DNA of 43,784 nt from a virus (lineage: Duplodnaviria > Caudoviricetes): the IMG/VR virus record IMGVR_UViG_3300015370_000024, positions 1-43,784 of that record; one strand, given 5' to 3'. A program made the position numbers and the translations under genes. The notes under the pieces were generated by a model, which had not been told where the DNA came from, did no database searches, and saw only the letters and a list, made by a program, of their open reading frames with translations. Shown piece by piece: positions 12,659-19,382 of the stretch (positions are counted from its first letter, which is position 1; the number at the start of each line of letters is the position of its first letter).

Positions 12659-12705
12659 AACTAACTCTAACTTACTCGAACTCAAACTCGAACTCAAACT
12701 CTAAC
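12659..12705 (+). repeat. Degenerate AACTCN hexamer tandem repeat
   Basis: ..ctcg aactca aactcg aactca aactct aac.. directly before the RBS of 12722. Confidence 0.7.
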
Positions 12706-12721
12706 CAGAAAAGGATATAAA

Positions 12722-13174
12722 ATGAAACTCTCAGAAATGTTCCCCAGCGACCTGCTCAAATCACAGGATATTTTAGACGCAGGCGGCGAAATGACACTCA
12801 CCATCCTGAAAGTTGAAATGAAAACTTTCGACCGGGATGAGGGCGACAAAGACACAAAGCCTATTGTTTACTTTGAAGAGGGCAAGCAATTGGTTTTGAA
12901 CGTTACCAACAAGAACGCAATTGCAGAAATGCACGGCCAGGAAGATACCGATCAATGGATTGGTAAGCAAGTTACTTTGACCGTCAAAGATGTCGAATTC
13001 CAGGGCAAAACTGTTCTTGGCATCCGAGTCAAAAACGAAAACAGCAAGGATGCTCTTATCCAAGAATTTTGGTCAAGCGCCCGCGCTCTTGGATATGACC
13101 AGAAAGCCGGTCAGGAGTTGTTGAAAGAACACAACATGGATTTCAAGGCAGCTATCGCCGCTCTCGAATTCTAA
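12722..13174 (+). CDS. Putative ssDNA-binding/recombination-associated phage protein
   Basis: FPSDLLK..D...KPIVYF...KQLVLN.TN...W.GK.VTL...V.F.G...GIRV pattern typical of phage replication modules. Confidence 0.5.
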   Translation: MKLSEMFPSDLLKSQDILDAGGEMTLTILKVEMKTFDRDEGDKDTKPIVYFEEGKQLVLNVTNKNAIAEMHGQEDTDQWIGKQVTLTVKDVEFQGKTVLGIRVKNENSKDALIQEFWSSARALGYDQKAGQELLKEHNMDFKAAIAALEF

Positions 13175-13233
13175 CCCCTCAACGCCCGTCCTGCTCTACT
13201 TGGCTGGGCAGGACGGGCTCGGAAAGGTACTAT

Positions 13234-13584
13234 ATGGCAAAAGGTGATTACCCAACAGGCGCATTAGTTGTAGTTTTGCGCGAATATAGATATAGTGGCG
13301 GAAGCCATGAAGTTTATGAGCATGCAAAAAAGGAATTGAAAAACCTGATGATGTGCCTCGTAAATTTTGAAGCCGCCCAACAAGGCGTGCAGTCGGAACA
13401 GATGGGGCAGGATACTGACCCTAAACAGAATCCAGGCGAAAAGAGCGAAGCCGCCTGTCCCTATTACACACACAATGCCCTGTTAGCGTGGCATGGAAAC
13501 TATAAGTATTGTCCTGAGTGCGGGGAGCGGCTTCGCTGGTCTGGTAAAGAGACGGATTCTCAACCCGCCCCATCTGTCCGCTGA
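13234..13584 (+). CDS. Cassette ORF, hypothetical, C-terminal Zn-ribbon-like
   Basis: GAAAGG RBS; reads through attC and stops at TGA in the L' box. Confidence 0.65.
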   Translation: MAKGDYPTGALVVVLREYRYSGGSHEVYEHAKKELKNLMMCLVNFEAAQQGVQSEQMGQDTDPKQNPGEKSEAACPYYTHNALLAWHGNYKYCPECGERLRWSGKETDSQPAPSVR

Positions 13585-13601
13585 CGCTCTGCCCGTTAGC
13601 C
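13375..13601 (+). repeat. attC-like site 1
   Basis: GCCCAAC-AAG-GCGT(G)CAG(T)CGG(A)ACAGATGGGG ... CCCCATCTGTCCGCTGACGC-TCTGCCC-GTTAGCC. Confidence 0.8.
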
Positions 13602-13690
13602 CGCGCTGCGGCCACCCAACGAACGGGTGTCCTTGGCGGGCTAATGGGGCAAGCACTAATGCAGAGCTAGCCCTTCGTGAAAGGAAAAAG

Positions 13691-14074
13691 ATGTTCACTG
13701 ATATTCTTGAAGCCGAAATAAAATGGTGTGAAAATAATGATGGCGCTATGCCAGAAGAATTTCGTAAAGGGTTTATTGCTGGCCTAAAGCAAGCGATTTA
13801 CCTGATAAACGCCGCTCTTCAACGGATAGGGTGGGAAGAAGGTGTGCTTGAAAATGATGGAGTCTGGTTAGACATGCGCGGGCTAACTCTGCATGAAGCT
13901 GTCCAACGGTACGGGGATAATCCCGTTTCCGAAGATTCTACAGGCTATTCGGGTTCTGCTTTTTGTGAATGTACGGGTGATAAGTATGGCTATTTTGACA
14001 AGGTTTCTGGAAAATGTTTGTATTGCAACAAGCAGCAGAACCCTCACGCATTCCGTGACAGGTTTTTTTCCTAA
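13691..14074 (+). CDS. Cassette ORF, hypothetical, C-terminal Cys-rich
   Basis: Start reassigned to ATG 13691 (AAAGGA RBS); CEC...CLYC in the attC loop. Confidence 0.65.
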   Translation: MFTDILEAEIKWCENNDGAMPEEFRKGFIAGLKQAIYLINAALQRIGWEEGVLENDGVWLDMRGLTLHEAVQRYGDNPVSEDSTGYSGSAFCECTGDKYGYFDKVSGKCLYCNKQQNPHAFRDRFFS

Positions 14075-14119
14075 GCCCGCCCCGTACTCCGTTGGCAGCT
14101 TATGCTCGCCCCATTAGGC
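13881..14119 (+). repeat. attC-like site 2 (ATT core variant)
   Basis: GGCTAAC-TCT-GCAT(G)AAGCTG(T)CCAACGG ... CCGTTGGCAGCTTATGC-TCGCCCC-ATTAGGC. Confidence 0.8.
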
Positions 14120-14207
14120 GGAACTGCGGCGGGTAGCAACCCCGCCTTGCCGTCCAACGGCACCCAGCGACCCAACGCAGAGCTGGACTTCTTGAAAGGA
14201 TAAAAAG

Positions 14208-14522
14208 ATGGCAAATAATCATGATCTCGCAAATCTCATCTACCTTGCTCTCAAAGATAAGGGGGCGGGAGTGGGTAACGCTTCGATAGGTATCATTCGG
14301 AAAGTTCTTGATGAACATAATGCAGTCCGTCCAACTCTGCGTGCACCCGTCCATAGGGGGGTCTCAGTGGAATTGCCAGATTATCCACTGTATGAACTGG
14401 TTGAGGAGCTAAAAAACGGGGTGTACGTTCAATTTGTTGGCGTCCACGCTCTTGAATGGCGATCCGAATGGGGTCGTCCTAAATATGGCTTTATTGAATA
14501 CGACCCTCCCAATGGCGGGTGA
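14208..14522 (+). CDS. Cassette ORF, hypothetical
   Basis: AAAGGA RBS; stop TGA inside the L' box. Confidence 0.65.
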   Translation: MANNHDLANLIYLALKDKGAGVGNASIGIIRKVLDEHNAVRPTLRAPVHRGVSVELPDYPLYELVEELKNGVYVQFVGVHALEWRSEWGRPKYGFIEYDPPNGG

Positions 14523-14540
14523 CGCTGGGTGCCGTTAGGC
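14329..14540 (+). repeat. attC-like site 3
   Basis: GTCCAAC-TCT-GCGT(G)CACCCG(T)CCATAGGGGGGTC ... GACCCTCCCAATGGCGGGTGACGC-TGGGTGCC-GTTAGGC. Confidence 0.82.
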
Positions 14541-14549
14541 CGCTTACTT

Positions 14550-15395
14550 ATGAATAAATTTGATTTGCATTTCGGTGATTGTCTCAATGTGTTGCCCCGG
14601 TTGAAGGGCGGCAGTATAGATGCAATTATCACTGATCCTCCATACTCAAGCGGCGGTGCATACCGAGCAGACCGCACACAAACAACGGATAAAAAGTATC
14701 AACATACAGCAGAAACAAATCGTAGTTATGCAACATTTTCAGGAGACAATAGAGACCAAAGAAGTTTTGAAAAGTGGTGCTATATGTGGATGTCTGAAAG
14801 TCTAAGAGTAACCAGGGAAGGTGGTATTTTTGCAACGTTTATTGATTGGCGAAACATAGCCAGCATGATTGATGCCGTTCAGATTGCTGGGTGGGTATTT
14901 CGCGGAATAGTTCCATGGTACAAAGGAAAAGATCAACGCCCGCGCAAGGGTTGGTTTAGGGCAAATGTGGAATATTTAGTAATGGCTTCAAATGGCCCAT
15001 TGCTAACAGGCCACAAAGCACCTGGTATTTGTGCAGATGGTATTATTTATGCTCGCATAAATGGAATTGAAAAATATCATCAAACCGGAAAACCCGTTGA
15101 GGTTGCAACTCATCTTGTTACCATGCGGCCAGACATTCAAAAAGTTCTTGACCCCTTTATGGGAAGTGGTACAACCGGCATAGCATGTATGCAAACAGAA
15201 AGATATTTTATCGGTATTGAAAAAGAAAATGAGTATTTTGAAATAGCTAAAGAGCGCATTGAAAACGCCGCCCTTCAACCTGTCTTGCTAGAAAAAGGCG
15301 GCCTAACACAGCGTGAACCTGACAAGGGGGATTCTCCCCGTCAATCGAGTTTTATCAGCCCCGAAGCGGATACCGCTCAGGGAGCATTATCGTAG
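14550..15395 (+). CDS. N6-adenine/N4-cytosine DNA methyltransferase (cassette-borne)
   Basis: GDCL, ITDPPY, HQTGKP, VLDPFMGSGTTG; ATG 14550 just after R'. Confidence 0.9.
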   Translation: MNKFDLHFGDCLNVLPRLKGGSIDAIITDPPYSSGGAYRADRTQTTDKKYQHTAETNRSYATFSGDNRDQRSFEKWCYMWMSESLRVTREGGIFATFIDWRNIASMIDAVQIAGWVFRGIVPWYKGKDQRPRKGWFRANVEYLVMASNGPLLTGHKAPGICADGIIYARINGIEKYHQTGKPVEVATHLVTMRPDIQKVLDPFMGSGTTGIACMQTERYFIGIEKENEYFEIAKERIENAALQPVLLEKGGLTQREPDKGDSPRQSSFISPEADTAQGALS

Positions 15396-15428
15396 CCCGC
15401 CCCTTGCAGGTTACGCAAACCGTTAGAC
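15301..15428 (+). repeat. attC-like site 4
   Basis: GCCTAAC-ACA-GCGT(G)AACCTG(A)CAAGGGG ... CCCCTTGCAGGTTACGC-AAACC-GTTAGAC. Confidence 0.88.
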
Positions 15429-15531
15429 CGCGCTCGGCGACCAGCAACGAACGCTGGCCCCCTCCCTCGGTCTAACGGCGCGAGCACTAATGCAGAGTCA
15501 GACCGCTTACTCTAAAAGAAAGGTGTTGCAA

Positions 15532-15762
15532 ATGGAATATGAATTACTGGCTATCTTATATGCAACCAAAAACAGTCGTAAATTGTCAGCGTCGCAAATG
15601 GATGCTATAAAGGAATTTGCCATCTTCCTAGACACGCGCGGTCTAACTCTGCATGAACCCGTCACAGCCATTCAGGGCGGGTTTACGTGTGAAAATTGCG
15701 GGTGCGCTAATAGTGGCTCATTCGATACGTGTGTAGAGTGCGATGCCCCCCGCCCTTCATGA
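15532..15762 (+). CDS. Cassette ORF with C-terminal CxxC...CxxC Zn ribbon
   Basis: AAAGGTG RBS; FTCENCGCAN...CVEC in the attC loop. Confidence 0.65.
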   Translation: MEYELLAILYATKNSRKLSASQMDAIKEFAIFLDTRGLTLHEPVTAIQGGFTCENCGCANSGSFDTCVECDAPRPS

Positions 15763-15795
15763 ACGGCTGAGCGGGTTATGCTCGTGCCGTTAGGC
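15641..15795 (+). repeat. attC-like site 5
   Basis: GTCTAAC-TCT-GCAT(G)AACCCG...CAGCC ... GGCTGAGCGGGTTATGC-TCGTGCC-GTTAGGC. Confidence 0.82.
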
Positions 15796-15874
15796 GGCCC
15801 GCGGATGGGCAACAACCGCCCACCCTTGCCCGCCTAATGGCGCAAGCACAAATGCAGTAGCTAGGCTACTAGAA

Positions 15875-16075
15875 ATGGAAGAAAAGATGGATCGTAAATG
15901 TGAAAATTGCAAATTTTTTGAGGATATAAACAAATGGGGCCATTGCAGGCGTTATGCCCCTCGTCATATATCGGGTGTAGGTACAGGCTATGAGGAAAAA
16001 ATGTGGCCTGAAGTTAAATCGTATGATTGGTGTGGTGAATTCCAAGAGAAAGAGCCTTGCCCGAAGGCCGCCTAA
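15875..16075 (+). CDS. Cassette ORF, Cys-rich phage protein
   Basis: CENCKFF..GHCRRYAP..WP.V...DWCGEF; stop TAA inside R''. Confidence 0.7.
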   Translation: MEEKMDRKCENCKFFEDINKWGHCRRYAPRHISGVGTGYEEKMWPEVKSYDWCGEFQEKEPCPKAA

Positions 16076-16197
16076 CTACTGCATGGAGCGGAACTTGGGC
16101 AAGCTCCATCAAAGAAATTTATACCGATGTCTAAAAACATTTATCCGATTAGCAAGCGCGTACTCGCCCAAGTCCGCTCATGCTTGCGCCATTGGGC
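16070..16197 (+). repeat. attC-like site 6 (ATT core variant)
   Basis: GCCTAAC-TACT-GCAT(G)GAGCGGA(A)CTTGGGC ... GCCCAAGTCCGCTCATGC-TTGCGCC-ATTGGGC. Confidence 0.82.
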
Positions 16198-16219
16198 GGA
16201 CTGCTCAAAGAAGGTGATT

Positions 16220-16453
16220 ATGGAAGAAGAACTTTATCAATCGCTAAAAGATGTTCTAAGCATGTTTGGTGATGTAGAGCCAGGCAGTCGCACATGGCAC
16301 TTTATCAACAAGGCAAACATAGTTATTGCCAAATATGAAGGCCGCCCAACAAAGCGTGCAGCGGACGGGGTAACGGGCTGTGCATGTAAGCCTGAATTAC
16401 CCTATCTTCTAACTGGCGACATTTGTTCGGAGTGTAAATTACCCCGCCGCTGA
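16220..16453 (+). CDS. Cassette ORF with C-terminal Cys motif
   Basis: AAGGTG RBS, ATG 16220; CAC...CSEC; stop in L'. Confidence 0.65.
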   Translation: MEEELYQSLKDVLSMFGDVEPGSRTWHFINKANIVIAKYEGRPTKRAADGVTGCACKPELPYLLTGDICSECKLPRR

Positions 16454-16468
16454 CGCAAACCGTTAGAC
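16344..16468 (+). repeat. attC-like site 7
   Basis: GCCCAAC-AAA-GCGT(G)CAGCGG(A)CGGGGTAA ... TTACCCCGCCGCTGACGC-AAACC-GTTAGAC. Confidence 0.88.
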
Positions 16469-16513
16469 CCCTTCTTGTAAAATTATCTCACCCCTAAAAG
16501 GAAAGGTTATCCA

Positions 16514-16897
16514 ATGAATGAAAACGAAATCAAACAGAAGTTAGACCAGTTGGCAGAGTTTCAATCCGAGCGCGATGTTGCTATGCTTGAAAAACAACGT
16601 CTGCTCGATGAAATTTATACCGCCGAAATCAAGGCGCGGATGGCTGAAATAGAAGCCGAGTTTGCAGGTAAGACCGAAGCGGTAAACGAAAACATCTCCG
16701 TACTCGAAGCCGAAATAAAACAGGCTATTATCGAGCATGGCGCAAGCGTCAAAGGCTCTGTGTTTCATGCGGTCTTTGCAAAAGGTCGCGTATCGTGGGA
16801 TACAAAATCTCTCGATGGTTACGCAACCGCTCATCCTGAATTGCTTACGTTCCGAAAAGAAGGTGAGCCATCAGTCAGTATCCGTGTTGCAAAATAG
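16514..16897 (+). CDS. Cassette ORF, coiled-coil protein (Mu Gam/Gp157-like)
   Basis: Long N-terminal coiled coil; C-terminal KGRVSWD.K.L....HPEL..FRKEGEPSVSIR. Confidence 0.5.
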   Translation: MNENEIKQKLDQLAEFQSERDVAMLEKQRLLDEIYTAEIKARMAEIEAEFAGKTEAVNENISVLEAEIKQAIIEHGASVKGSVFHAVFAKGRVSWDTKSLDGYATAHPELLTFRKEGEPSVSIRVAK

Positions 16898-16904
16898 GCA
16901 CGGG

Positions 16905-17263
16905 GTCTAACACAGCGTGAACCAGACGGCGGGAATCATACCGTTGAAAATGAGTTGTTCCCGCCCGAAGCTTATTCCGATTTTGAAGGAGAGCAGTAAT
17001 CCACCCGCCGCCGAACAACGCAATGAAGCTGTCCAACGGAGAGATGAAATGAGTTTCAAAGAAGCATGTGCAAAAGCAGCAATAAAAGCAGGTGAAACAG
17101 GAGTGCAGTTTTTCGTGTACGATGCCCCTACCACGTGGGATGTTACTGCTTCTTTTCGTCCAGGTTGGTTGTTTCGTGCGTATCCCGGTGGCCGTAAGGT
17201 TTTGTCGGTTGAAGGCACAAAGCTCTTGCAAGAAGATGAGCTGCCTAACGCAAACCGTTGGGC
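16905..17263 (+). repeat. Disrupted/composite attC-like site 8
   Basis: Left arm GTCTAAC-ACA-GCGTGAACCAGACGGCGGG; partial partner CCCGCCG 17004-17010; second left arm at 17010; orphan right end ACGC-AAACC-GTTGGGC ending 17263. Confidence 0.6.
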
Positions 17264-17288
17264 TGCTGTAGGTGGCCCGGAAAGGTAA
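17049..17288 (+). CDS. Cassette-region ORF, hypothetical
   Basis: GGAG RBS, ATG 17049 (MSFKEACAK). Confidence 0.55.
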   Translation: MSFKEACAKAAIKAGETGVQFFVYDAPTTWDVTASFRPGWLFRAYPGGRKVLSVEGTKLLQEDELPNANRWAAVGGPER

Positions 17289-17294
17289 AGAATA

Positions 17295-17582
17295 ATGAGT
17301 ATCCCATTCACACAATATCTTCTCCCAAATGGTAGGTGCAATCTAGTTACGATTGATATGCCAGAAGATGTCGAAAAGAAAGCACATGCACTTATTGAAG
17401 CAGGTTGTCATTTTGATATTGAAGTTCTCACTACTGGCCTTGTCAGTATGACGTGTGAACGCGATGACGATATGCTTTCGATTGAAGTTTGCGAAGGTGG
17501 GCCGCCTGTTGTTGCTGGCGTGCGTAAGATTGTTGAGAGCGCAGCAGCCCAACTACGCGTGCACTTGACGGGTGAAGCGTGA
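17295..17582 (+). CDS. Cassette ORF, hypothetical phage protein
   Basis: GAAAGG RBS; MSIPFTQYLLPNGR; ends inside attC 9. Confidence 0.7.
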   Translation: MSIPFTQYLLPNGRCNLVTIDMPEDVEKKAHALIEAGCHFDIEVLTTGLVSMTCERDDDMLSIEVCEGGPPVVAGVRKIVESAAAQLRVHLTGEA

Positions 17583-17640
17583 CCGTTATATCGGTATTCC
17601 CCGTTATGTTTCACCCGCAAGTAACGCAAGTTCGTTCGAC
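17547..17640 (+). repeat. attC-like site 9
   Basis: GCCCAAC-TAC-GCGT(G)CACTTG(A)CGGGTGAA ... TTCACCCGCAAGTAACGC-AAGTTC-GTTCGAC. Confidence 0.75.
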
Positions 17641-17764
17641 CGCGTGCGGCCAGGGGCAACGAACGCCGCCCCCCTCCCTCGGCCTAATGGGGCGAGCATA
17701 CAATGCAGAGTTATGCTCGCGCCATTAGCTGGCTTCGTGCCAGAGAAAGAGTTGAAAGTCTAGG

Positions 17765-17983
17765 ATGCTAACTTATGATGAAATGAAATTAGTAGCCGAA
17801 GGTTGCTATCGCCCATCTAACGATCAACGGGTTCGCGCAATGGTGAAGCTGATTGAGGATATTGTATTCCCAGAGCATGTGTTTTCATATTCCGAGGAAG
17901 AAATGCTAAACGCATTGATGCGTAAATTGGGTGTTCAGTTGACGCTTGCGCATTGGGCAGACCCCGAAAGGATAGAAGCATGA
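17765..17983 (+). CDS. Hypothetical protein (array)
   Basis: ORF after the ATTAGCT core; ATGA-coupled to next gene. Confidence 0.55.
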   Translation: MLTYDEMKLVAEGCYRPSNDQRVRAMVKLIEDIVFPEHVFSYSEEEMLNALMRKLGVQLTLAHWADPERIEA

Positions 17984-18192
17984 CGTATGATTTTATGAGA
18001 GAGTTACGCGCTCAGTGGACAAGGTGGGTGGAAGAAGAAAATAAATGTCCGCATTGTGGTGGTGTCCTGCCACGGATACAAAGTCCGTTAGCTAATAATC
18101 TGTCTGCCCAACAAAACGTGCAGCGGAAGCATGAGCATAATCACGTATTTATTGGCGGTGTGTGTCGTCACTGTGGCAAGAAATGTTATTAA
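17980..18192 (+). CDS. Small Zn-finger-like protein (array)
   Basis: CPHCG and H.H...CRHCG; reads through an orphan attC left arm at 18106. Confidence 0.6.
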   Translation: MTYDFMRELRAQWTRWVEEENKCPHCGGVLPRIQSPLANNLSAQQNVQRKHEHNHVFIGGVCRHCGKKCY

Positions 18193-18214: not shown

Positions 18215-18589
18215 GTGACAAAAATTATTGCTCAAAATGCACTAGGGCGTGGAACACGTCAGGTCATTATCCAAAGCAATGATGGCAAAATATACGAAGC
18301 CCATCTGGAGCGCGGAGATAAAATCGAGAATGCCGATTGGAAACCAACGCAGTCGCAAGACCCCGCTAGCTTTGGGGGTGCTATGTACCATCAGGGCCAG
18401 GGCTGGCTCTTTGTTGGTTACTGTGCTCTCATGGCTCCGTTTTTCCTGATTGCGTATTTGCTCATAACGGGTCGTATGCAATGGCAAACGGTTGAATTGT
18501 TGGGTCAGATATGCGGCATTCCAGTGTTTTTGTTTTTCGCGGTCGGGATGCCAGTCATTATTGCAATTAAGAAACGTCACCATGGATGA
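18215..18589 (+). CDS. Membrane protein (2 TM)
   Basis: GTG start with AGGT RBS; two C-terminal hydrophobic helices. Confidence 0.55.
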   Translation: MTKIIAQNALGRGTRQVIIQSNDGKIYEAHLERGDKIENADWKPTQSQDPASFGGAMYHQGQGWLFVGYCALMAPFFLIAYLLITGRMQWQTVELLGQICGIPVFLFFAVGMPVIIAIKKRHHG

Positions 18590-18770
18590 ACTTGAAATTG
18601 CTAAAAATGCACTTGAGCAAATCATCGGATATTATCGGCGCAGTCATAAGCATGGCAAAAATACGTGCTATATGATGTGCCTTGAGGCAGAGAGGGCTTT
18701 GCAAGAAATGAGCCTTCTAACACAGCGCGCGGACGAGCTGACAACGTTATCCCTCAAGAGCAAGCTCTAA
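18582..18770 (+). CDS. Hypothetical protein ending in a degenerate attC remnant
   Basis: ATG 18582; TTCTAAC-ACA-GCG.. at 18715 gives LLTQRAD. Confidence 0.5.
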   Translation: MDELEIAKNALEQIIGYYRRSHKHGKNTCYMMCLEAERALQEMSLLTQRADELTTLSLKSKL

Positions 18771-19304
18771 GTAAGCCTCTTCCTCTAATGTTTGTCTTAT
18801 TCTTTCAGCATCTTCTTCCCCATAAATATAAGATAGTATCTCCTCGATGTATGTTCTCTCTCTAGTTGTAGTAGGTTTATATTCTGGGAACTTTTTCGTA
18901 AAATCACCCAAATCAAATCTATTCCAATGTCCAAATTCCTTGTATACATCTTCCAATAATATAACTTCTGCTCTTGACAATTTCTGAAATTTCACAGGCT
19001 TGCCATGAAGTCTTATTGAAACATCATCAGATTGCTCAATGTGTTTGCGCCATAGTGGATCTTTGATTTTGTCGTTAATCAAATCTAAAACCCCACTTAG
19101 TACTTGTCCTTCTTTCATGGAATAATATGTATCAAATGTAATTGGACGCTCCCAATTCTCCAATGCTTTTCTATCTGCTATGTACAACAACTTTATTATT
19201 TTGAGGCGGCTCATTTTTCCCCCATGCATACTAAGAAGCAATGAAGCTGCTTCAGTAGCCTTTTGTTCATTGAACTCAGGATACTTCTTATCGTTTATTA
19301 TCAT
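18747..19304 (-). CDS. Panacea (SocA/GepA, DUF4065-like) antitoxin-domain protein
   Basis: K..KLLYIADR......PIT.D.Y.SMKEGQV motif; GAGGAG RBS and own TGTATAAT; AT-rich. Confidence 0.75.
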   Translation of the reverse strand: MIINDKKYPEFNEQKATEAASLLLSMHGGKMSRLKIIKLLYIADRKALENWERPITFDTYYSMKEGQVLSGVLDLINDKIKDPLWRKHIEQSDDVSIRLHGKPVKFQKLSRAEVILLEDVYKEFGHWNRFDLGDFTKKFPEYKPTTTRERTYIEEILSYIYGEEDAERIRQTLEEEAYLELALEG

Positions 19305-19382
19305 TTTCTCCTCAATGTGATTATACAACATCAAGGCACCTGTTACAATAAAGCGGAGGAGTCTATTCATTTCCCATCGTTT

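Follow-up and report, generated by a model that had tools for sequence, protein, structure and literature searches.

Phage cassette genes that run in frame through attC-like sites, with loops that probably serve as exchangeable protein tails

The window analysed here is the whole 43,784-bp record IMGVR_UViG_3300015370_000024 of a tailed phage, which encodes a terminase, a major head protein, a DnaB helicase and two DNA methyltransferases. An array of gene cassettes with attC-like recombination sites closes the block of replication genes on the plus strand, from position 13234 to about 18770, where a truncated arm (18715) marks its end. The cassette genes of this phage and its relatives run in frame through the attC-like sites. 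We consider it probable, from comparison of the sequences, that the loop of the site encodes the tail of the protein, in about one sixth of the cases a predicted zinc finger, and that such tails have been exchanged between relatives, likely by recombination within the left arm of the site. attC sites are otherwise regarded as signals without coding function, and integrons as systems that move entire genes. The names of the site parts (R'', L', extrahelical base or EHB) and the RanBP2 consensus follow common usage and the literature cited below.

The site detector demanded R'', L'', a complementary stem, L' and R'. It found eight sites on the plus strand of the window, and in all loci together 890 sites on the real sequences versus 16 on the reversed ones. 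Seven of the eight window sites are crossed by the upstream open reading frame (ORF) and so depart from the expectation that an attC site is non-coding. The original prediction stated that only the ORFs 15875..16075 (stop in R'') and 16514..16897 (stop just before R'') end in the usual place, that the others translate the left arm, and that three stops lie inside L' (13584, 14522 and 16453); the sequence bears out all of this, including every arm peptide and coordinate that was quoted. After the removal of near-duplicates, and with the window's own contig (locus L373) excluded from every count, the comparison comprised 202 viral, 121 metagenome and 164 bacterial-genome sites, of which 11, 29 and 55, respectively, were unclassifiable because of the end of the locus or the lack of an ORF of 40 amino acid residues (aa). 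Read-through versus canonical stop was 149 versus 42 for viral sites, 62 versus 30 for metagenome sites, and 14 versus 95 for bacterial-genome sites (p 4e-29 for viral versus bacterial-genome sites, a value inflated by kinship among the sites). Eight of the 14 bacterial-genome cases sit in three loci (L150, L152 and L158) that appear phage-like. Read-through is the rule in the related phages and not in host genomes. A stop triplet of L' stands in the frame of the gene at 101 of 126 phage sites, and at 43 of 58, where one third would be expected. All three frames at R'' are in use (72, 32 and 28), and the length of the site tracks the frame.

The features of the array are as follows.
13234..13584, plus strand: cassette ORF of 116 aa that crosses attC 13375-13601, with CxxC in the loop and a TGA in L'
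13375..13601, plus strand: attC-like site, 227 bp
13637..13673, minus strand: inverted copy of the arms of the cassette's own attC (site 13881), without the loop
13691..14074, plus strand: cassette ORF of 127 aa with a Cys-rich loop tail; seven homologues have seven other tails
13881..14119, plus strand: attC-like site, 239 bp, whose stem contains a nested R''/R'-like pair (13901-14097)
14149..14188, minus strand: inverted copy of the arms of the cassette's own attC (site 14329), without the loop
14208..14522, plus strand: cassette ORF of 104 aa with a Cys-free tail of 63 aa and a TGA in L'
14329..14540, plus strand: attC-like site, 212 bp
14550..15395, plus strand: DNA methyltransferase cassette (PF01555) that enters a common 128-bp loop type
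15301..15428, plus strand: attC-like site, 128 bp
15468..15506, minus strand: inverted copy of the arms of the cassette's own attC (site 15641), without the loop
15532..15762, plus strand: cassette ORF of 76 aa with a predicted RanBP2-type four-Cys tail in the loop
15641..15795, plus strand: attC-like site, 155 bp
15830..15866, minus strand: inverted copy of the arms of the cassette's own attC (site 16070), without the loop
15875..16075, plus strand: cassette ORF with a canonical stop in R''
16070..16197, plus strand: attC-like site, 128 bp, not read through
16220..16453, plus strand: cassette ORF of 77 aa with a four-Cys tail in the loop and a TGA in L'
16344..16468, plus strand: attC-like site, 125 bp
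16514..16897, plus strand: cassette ORF with its stop ahead of R''; an 86% identical cassette gene is present in locus L007
16905..17263, plus strand: broken compound site, in which a left arm and stem are fused to a second left arm (GCCGAAC type) at about 17008
17049-17288, plus strand: ORF of 79 aa that begins inside the tip of the broken site and crosses R'
17295..17582, plus strand: cassette ORF that runs 10 codons into attC 17547-17640
17547-17640, plus strand: attC-like site, 94 bp
17680..17730, plus strand: collapsed cassette, an inverted-arm element joined directly to a right arm
17783..17983, plus strand: ORF almost wholly within a degenerate site (about 17815-17958)
17980..18192, plus strand: ORF that crosses the orphan left arm (18106) and continues into a tail with CxxC
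18582..18770, plus strand: ORF that crosses the truncated arm at 18715; a 92% identical gene is present in phage record G050

The broken site at 16905 appears to have arisen by deletion, and the collapsed cassette at 17680..17730 to have lost its gene.

The Cys knuckles of the loops are specific to the frame of the upstream gene. In that frame, 21 of 149 viral loops encode a double Cys/His knuckle, versus 3 of 298 other frames; in the metagenome loci the figures are 12 of 62 loops versus none of 124 other frames, and at sites behind canonical stops 4 of 501 frames contain it. The knuckle pairs belong to the loops (37 of 217) and not to windows of equal length immediately upstream (3 of 217). 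Genes with knuckle tails are short, with a median of 57 aa versus 82 aa, and exceed 150 aa in 1 of 37 versus 49 of 181 cases. Cys motifs in the read-through segments, which had been noted from the window alone, are present in four of the seven complete read-through sites (13375, 13881, 15641 and 16344) and behind the orphan arm at 18106, but the loops at 14329, 15301 and 17547 contain no Cys. The CRHC motif is real, although it follows the orphan left arm at 18106, for which no right arm was found.

Substitutions in the Cys-rich loops point to selection on the encoded peptide. The loop of site 15641 and its copy on an unrelated gene in L327 differ by six synonymous and three non-synonymous changes, with compensatory changes in the stem. 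The ratio of non-synonymous to synonymous substitution rates (dN/dS) of Cys-rich loops was 0.21 in frame versus 2.8 and 3.3 in the shifted frames, as calculated from two pairs selected at the DNA level, and pN/pS was 0.32 for seven protein-selected pairs, a figure biased low by the selection for protein identity. Codons of Cys-rich loops therefore do not behave as neutral sequence. Loops behind canonical stops gave a dN/dS of 0.97 (12 pairs).

The tail of site 15641 is predicted to adopt a four-Cys fold with two knuckles. An alignment of 14 hand-picked tails matches RanBP2/NZF fingers in the PDB, and the model has a predicted local distance difference test score (pLDDT) of 81. RanBP2/NZF fingers also occupy the top rows of a Foldseek search with the tail model (root-mean-square deviation 0.4-0.7 Å over 27-28 residues, E about 0.01-0.1). 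The single-sequence fold of 15532-15762 was poor (pLDDT 56). The window tail of site 15641 did not match PF00641 (RanBP2), and two kin tails scored E 6e-5 and 1e-4, under the cut-off; matches to Atlas features were all below 0.9. Other tails resemble DnaJ-type fingers or double zinc ribbons, and one matches an ordinary arm-less gene (L318).

Searched separately, the N-terminal and loop-encoded halves of the proteins turned out to occur in different combinations. Residues 1-62 of the protein encoded at 13691 match seven non-self proteins, and all seven have a different tail; most of these tails begin with an arm-like peptide and five contain a paired CxxC, the arm being read from the peptide since the homologues are proteins without DNA context. 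The homologue P0002 is 98% identical to residues 1-62 through the shared arm peptide and continues into a different four-Cys tail. The 63-aa tail of 14208 recurs, 84% identical, on an unrelated N-terminus in P0010. Two of the homologues of 13234 (P0012-P0014) have other arm-led tails, and one has no evident arm. The gene family of 15532 carries another predicted zinc loop in L457, and L356 has that loop on an unrelated gene. The copy of the 15641 loop in L327 is entered in another frame at R'', offset by a 4-nt spacer. For the 18582 gene, the relative in G050 is associated with a complete attC whose loop is Cys-rich. In total, four window genes have homologues with other tails, and two of the window's loops were found on unrelated genes. 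The most frequent cassette genes are phage DNA methyltransferases, which are of several types and have many different attC tails. Among pairs of sites that share a gene end, 26 of 33 have unrelated loops, and thus no fixed pairing of N-terminal and C-terminal halves is seen. In pairs that share a loop, the loop frame is kept in 13 of 17.

The breakpoint lies within the left arm, between the purine-pyrimidine run of R'' and the stem after L'', because the bases of R'' follow the gene (10 of 14, background 17%) and the stem bases after L'' follow the loop (29 of 38, background 18%). The proposal that exchange swaps C-terminal tails is upheld by the mosaics, but their breakpoints can be placed only to this interval of the left arm, from R'' to the L'' stem. 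In L342 and L346, and in L360 and L400, the gene ends are 100% identical and the loops are unrelated, each with its own complementary stem; between L360 and L400, the loop is replaced and both neighbours are identical. Breakpoints seem to vary, with one after base 3 of L'' in L400 and another about 10 nt into the stem for P0002, as judged by peptide. In 9 of 11 pairs the right spacer goes with the gene (p 0.008 without correction), and it does not go with the loop (11 of 21, background 0.41); spacers are likewise unlinked in host pairs with the same loop (18 of 37). P0002 diverges from 13691 near the nested R''/R'-like pair at 13901-14097.

Several observations weigh against the proposed reading or narrow it. 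The sites are not independent of each other, which inflates p-values, and single linkage merges 195 of 218 of them into one cluster; when a single site was drawn from each cluster, the results were still 12.5 of 16.9 (p 0.003), and 9.2 versus 0 of 21. No knuckle pair is encoded by 180 of 217 loops, and overall Cys frequency is not raised (0.041 versus 0.037). Cys-poor loops are weakly constrained (dN/dS 0.72, confidence interval 0.55-0.96, 19 pairs), and the ratio for the zinc loops comes from the small samples described above. Only 14 of 60 tails match Pfam at E<=0.01, two of them above the cut-off, and one of the six window tails does; the conserved stems supply part of the likeness to RanBP2 (the G-W start and the P-R end). 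The R box is unpaired in the predicted minimum free energy fold of four window sites, which therefore may now be poor substrates. The whole window contained no match to the tyrosine recombinase profiles PF00589 and TIGR02249, and no attI is evident in it, with no GTT core ahead of the first cassette. The concept of the attC loop as a coding slot thus stands with respect to frames, knuckles and selection, but the knuckle pair is restricted to about one loop in six and the other loops are weakly constrained. Of the Cys-poor loops, 36 of 131 are akin to host loops, whereas none of 43 Cys-rich loops scored above shuffles against host loops. Because of this difference in constraint and in likeness to host loops, we distinguish a large class of tails that are tolerated and under weak selection from a smaller class of modules that are selected.

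Apart from being translated, the sites have the anatomy of attC. They contain the cores of R'' (RYYYAAC) and of R' (GTTRRRY), and their L boxes are complementary; three R' are ATT variants. The bottom-strand hairpins of the eight complete window sites have z-scores from -2.6 to -6.8, and the predicted folds include two extrahelical bases and the unpaired spacer. At the cassette boundaries of the window, R'' and the start of its own cassette are reverse complements, perfectly so over 8 nt in 6 of 10 cases; among adjacent phage pairs, a 5-nt match of R'' to that start is present in 87 of 144, versus 13 of 144 for R' of the same site. By these sequence matches, the cassette boundaries of the window, at R', are those of substrates of the integron integrase IntI. 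The loops had been described as long, with sites of up to 239 bp. This is true of four of the eight sites (227, 239, 212 and 155 bp), all longer than the range of 57-141 bp given for attC (PMC5027507), but the others measure 94-128 bp. The loops are indeed non-palindromic, but not in any special way, as the cores of host loops are just as unstructured (median z -0.56 versus -0.22).

Four of the eight detected window cassettes open with an inverted copy of their own arms about 35-45 nt after R' (13637-13673, 14149-14188, 15468-15506 and 15830-15866), and a fifth remnant is at 17680-17708. The inverted right arm is followed by 3-4 nt and the inverted left arm, spacers included. A strict scan for the element found it at 1 of 202 viral sites, 0 of 121 metagenome sites and, doubtfully, 1 of 164 bacterial-genome sites. 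Looser scans added L327, L457, L323 and L445, and L295 also carries the element. A pattern search for the 5' inverted element found no viral contigs. Cassettes with the element have long right spacers, and a search with the long-spacer right-arm pattern gave one match. The GTT of the inverted left arm is altered in seven of eight inspected copies and kept in L445. In the predicted single-stranded DNA fold, the element forms pairs with the two arms that are 9-17 kcal/mol more favourable than those of a shuffled element, and R-box pairing is low either way. We speculate that the inverted element is a lock or a splint.

The host of the phage is likely a member of the Anaerolineae, because bacterial genomes that share the right-arm pattern of the array (at least 149 stretches) belong, among the matches listed, mainly to Anaerolineae or other Chloroflexota. 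The same pattern matches 118 stretches of viral contigs. The window has several co-oriented attC and no intI nearby, as in clusters of attC sites lacking integron integrases (CALINs). It is not a complete integron, with intI on the same replicon, an arrangement found in 9 of 50 related records. Of these 50 phage records, 18 encode a tyrosine recombinase, and in nine of the 18 it passes the integron-integrase cut-off. The phage IntIs form two phage-only clades (support 100/100 and 99/99; joint monophyly not supported, 25/75) and are encoded directly upstream of the arrays on the same strand. In nine of ten phage loci a GTT core lies within 20 nt of the IntI stop, and attI therefore likely overlaps the 3' end of intI. 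In host intI loci, the layout is divergent, with an upstream attC on the opposite strand, in 6 of 17, and tandem in none. Because relatives encode a co-oriented IntI beside their arrays, whole cassettes are likely moved by IntI in trans. The phage IntI loci are L417-L426 (G004, G012, G026, G030, G035, G039, G043, G044, G049 and G050), with the GTT core at or just after the intI stop.

In the mechanism that we propose, whole cassettes would, with high probability, be moved at R' by IntI supplied in trans from the host or a co-infecting relative. Tails would be exchanged by short-homology recombination or template switching between near-identical arms of about 20-30 bp during phage replication, a step to which we give slightly less than an even chance. 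This route is favoured because the breakpoints seem variable and the window contains two apparent microhomology collapses (16905 and 17680). Selection would then keep the joints that are in frame to the L' stop. Read-through may first have spread by maintaining translation of the early operon past the hairpin; some of the loops could then have become or captured predicted zinc-binding modules, which would provide short proteins with interchangeable interaction tails. A close rival, somewhat less likely, is that IntI itself swaps the coding tails, either by top-strand exchange at R'' or by cutting at the L box, whether by itself or in a second strand exchange through which two folded attC would swap their hairpin tips. 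The arm that holds the breakpoints contains both positions, in L360 versus L400 one joint falls after base 3 of L'' and another loop is replaced between identical neighbours, and the co-orientation, the clades and the GTT cores of the phage IntIs also fit. Recombination normally occurs at R', and a top-strand event at R'' has been described (PMC5027507). According to PMC5027507 and PMC2727003, however, the extrahelical T prevents both an attack at the L box and the second exchange; the sites described here keep this T, and one phage IntI aligns end to end with VchIntIA. The linkage of the right spacer to the gene and not the loop does not fit swapping by IntI cleanly either, although the spacers of host pairs with the same loop are unlinked too. 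We are more doubtful about shuffling at two levels, in which Anaerolineae phages would run integrons of their own and IntI would move cassettes at R' and swap hairpin tips from L'' to L', reassorting among proteins functional zinc-finger domains that are stored inside the recombination site, with the inverted copy as a splint or lock.

Translation could instead be all that matters, with read-through keeping ribosomes moving across the hairpin to the next cassette, the tails being passengers and the replacement of attC a by-product. The stops cluster in L' regardless of the peptide, every frame is used, one loop family is read on many unrelated genes including methyltransferases, and the host loops that some Cys-poor loops resemble are non-coding. 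Small ORFs in attC that aid downstream translation are cited in PMC11511950, where a translated 3' region of a cassette doubled downstream expression in one test, but the removal of attC was mostly without effect. Coupling on its own leaves unexplained the loop- and frame-specific knuckle pairs, their dN/dS and the conserved 63-aa tail of 14208. We judge it improbable as the whole explanation; a coupling role is probably true for the majority class of loops, which are not Cys-rich, and not for the Cys-rich class. Very little speaks for a decaying host integron or an assembly artefact with frames open by chance, to which we give hardly any credence. The window lacks an integrase and has several broken sites at the distal end of the array, but host cassettes typically stop before R'', and the cassette genes of the window are of phage type. 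Contigs from a second study match the window at 13943-14304, 15265-15679 and 16047-16708 with 0-2 differences and reproduce several junctions; one further low-side joint (22 letters) was not counted. The frame statistics contradict chance as well. We thus retain in-frame loops with tails exchanged in the left arm as the probable explanation.

Scans of the window for promoters and terminators gave matches no better than chance, and tRNA and Rfam scans of it gave no match; among RNA data sets, none was listed as containing it. A contig from another study diverges from the window after R' at 17263 (17 different letters) and possibly enters another next cassette, but it is too short to count. A GC-rich hairpin lies between a conserved gene of 150 aa (phrog_21613) and the first cassette, at 13178-13225 in the window and at 3670-3725 in L001; these two phages hold wholly different cassettes there. 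A short tandem repeat of about three 12-nt units is located at 12673-12708, upstream of the gene at 12722. Convergent to the end of the array, a gene at 18747-19370 on the minus strand encodes a Panacea/SocA-like antitoxin domain (PF13274); no partner toxin was identified. Locus L469, considered as a relative, was rejected as spurious.

The array shares its attC without integrase, its methyltransferase cassettes and the presumed supply of IntI in trans with the phage CALINs and phage integrons of Qi et al. 2023 (PMC9892861). A term search of that paper found no mention of zinc, Chloroflexi or ORFs overlapping attC, whereas here the genes cross attC, loops are under selection, and relatives carry a co-oriented intI. 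The synthetic protein-coding attC of Nivina et al. 2020 (PMC7439510) likewise double as in-frame code and were proposed for the shuffling of modules; as described there, the sites are engineered, with loops of 3-21 nt and crossover at R', unlike the natural sites reported here, in which the loop may hold a whole predicted domain, the stop is in L', and exchange likely occurs in the left arm. With canonical attC and the sedentary integrons of Anaerolineae, the sites have in common the R''-L''-L'-R' order, two extrahelical bases, the unpaired spacer, arm sequences and G|TT ends. Host Anaerolineae sites differ from those of the window in that they are about 130 bp long, their genes stop before or in R'', and intI is divergent. 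One class of tails resembles RanBP2/NZF fingers, DnaJ-type fingers and small CPxCG proteins in Cys spacing and predicted fold, but the scores are mostly below Pfam cut-offs, and the likeness may be convergent. Natural read-through attC with selected and exchanged coding loops were not found in the open-licence literature.

Arrays of this kind would probably escape cassette finders that set an upper limit on attC length or reject sites that overlap ORFs. The material identified in this work (sites, loops and phage IntIs) bears on the exchange by IntI at R'' or the L box, on how phage genes become cassettes, and on how short proteins gain predicted zinc-binding tails. The attC of these phages would be under a dual constraint, as a recombination site and as a joint between parts of a protein, and may be a natural counterpart of engineered domain shuffling.

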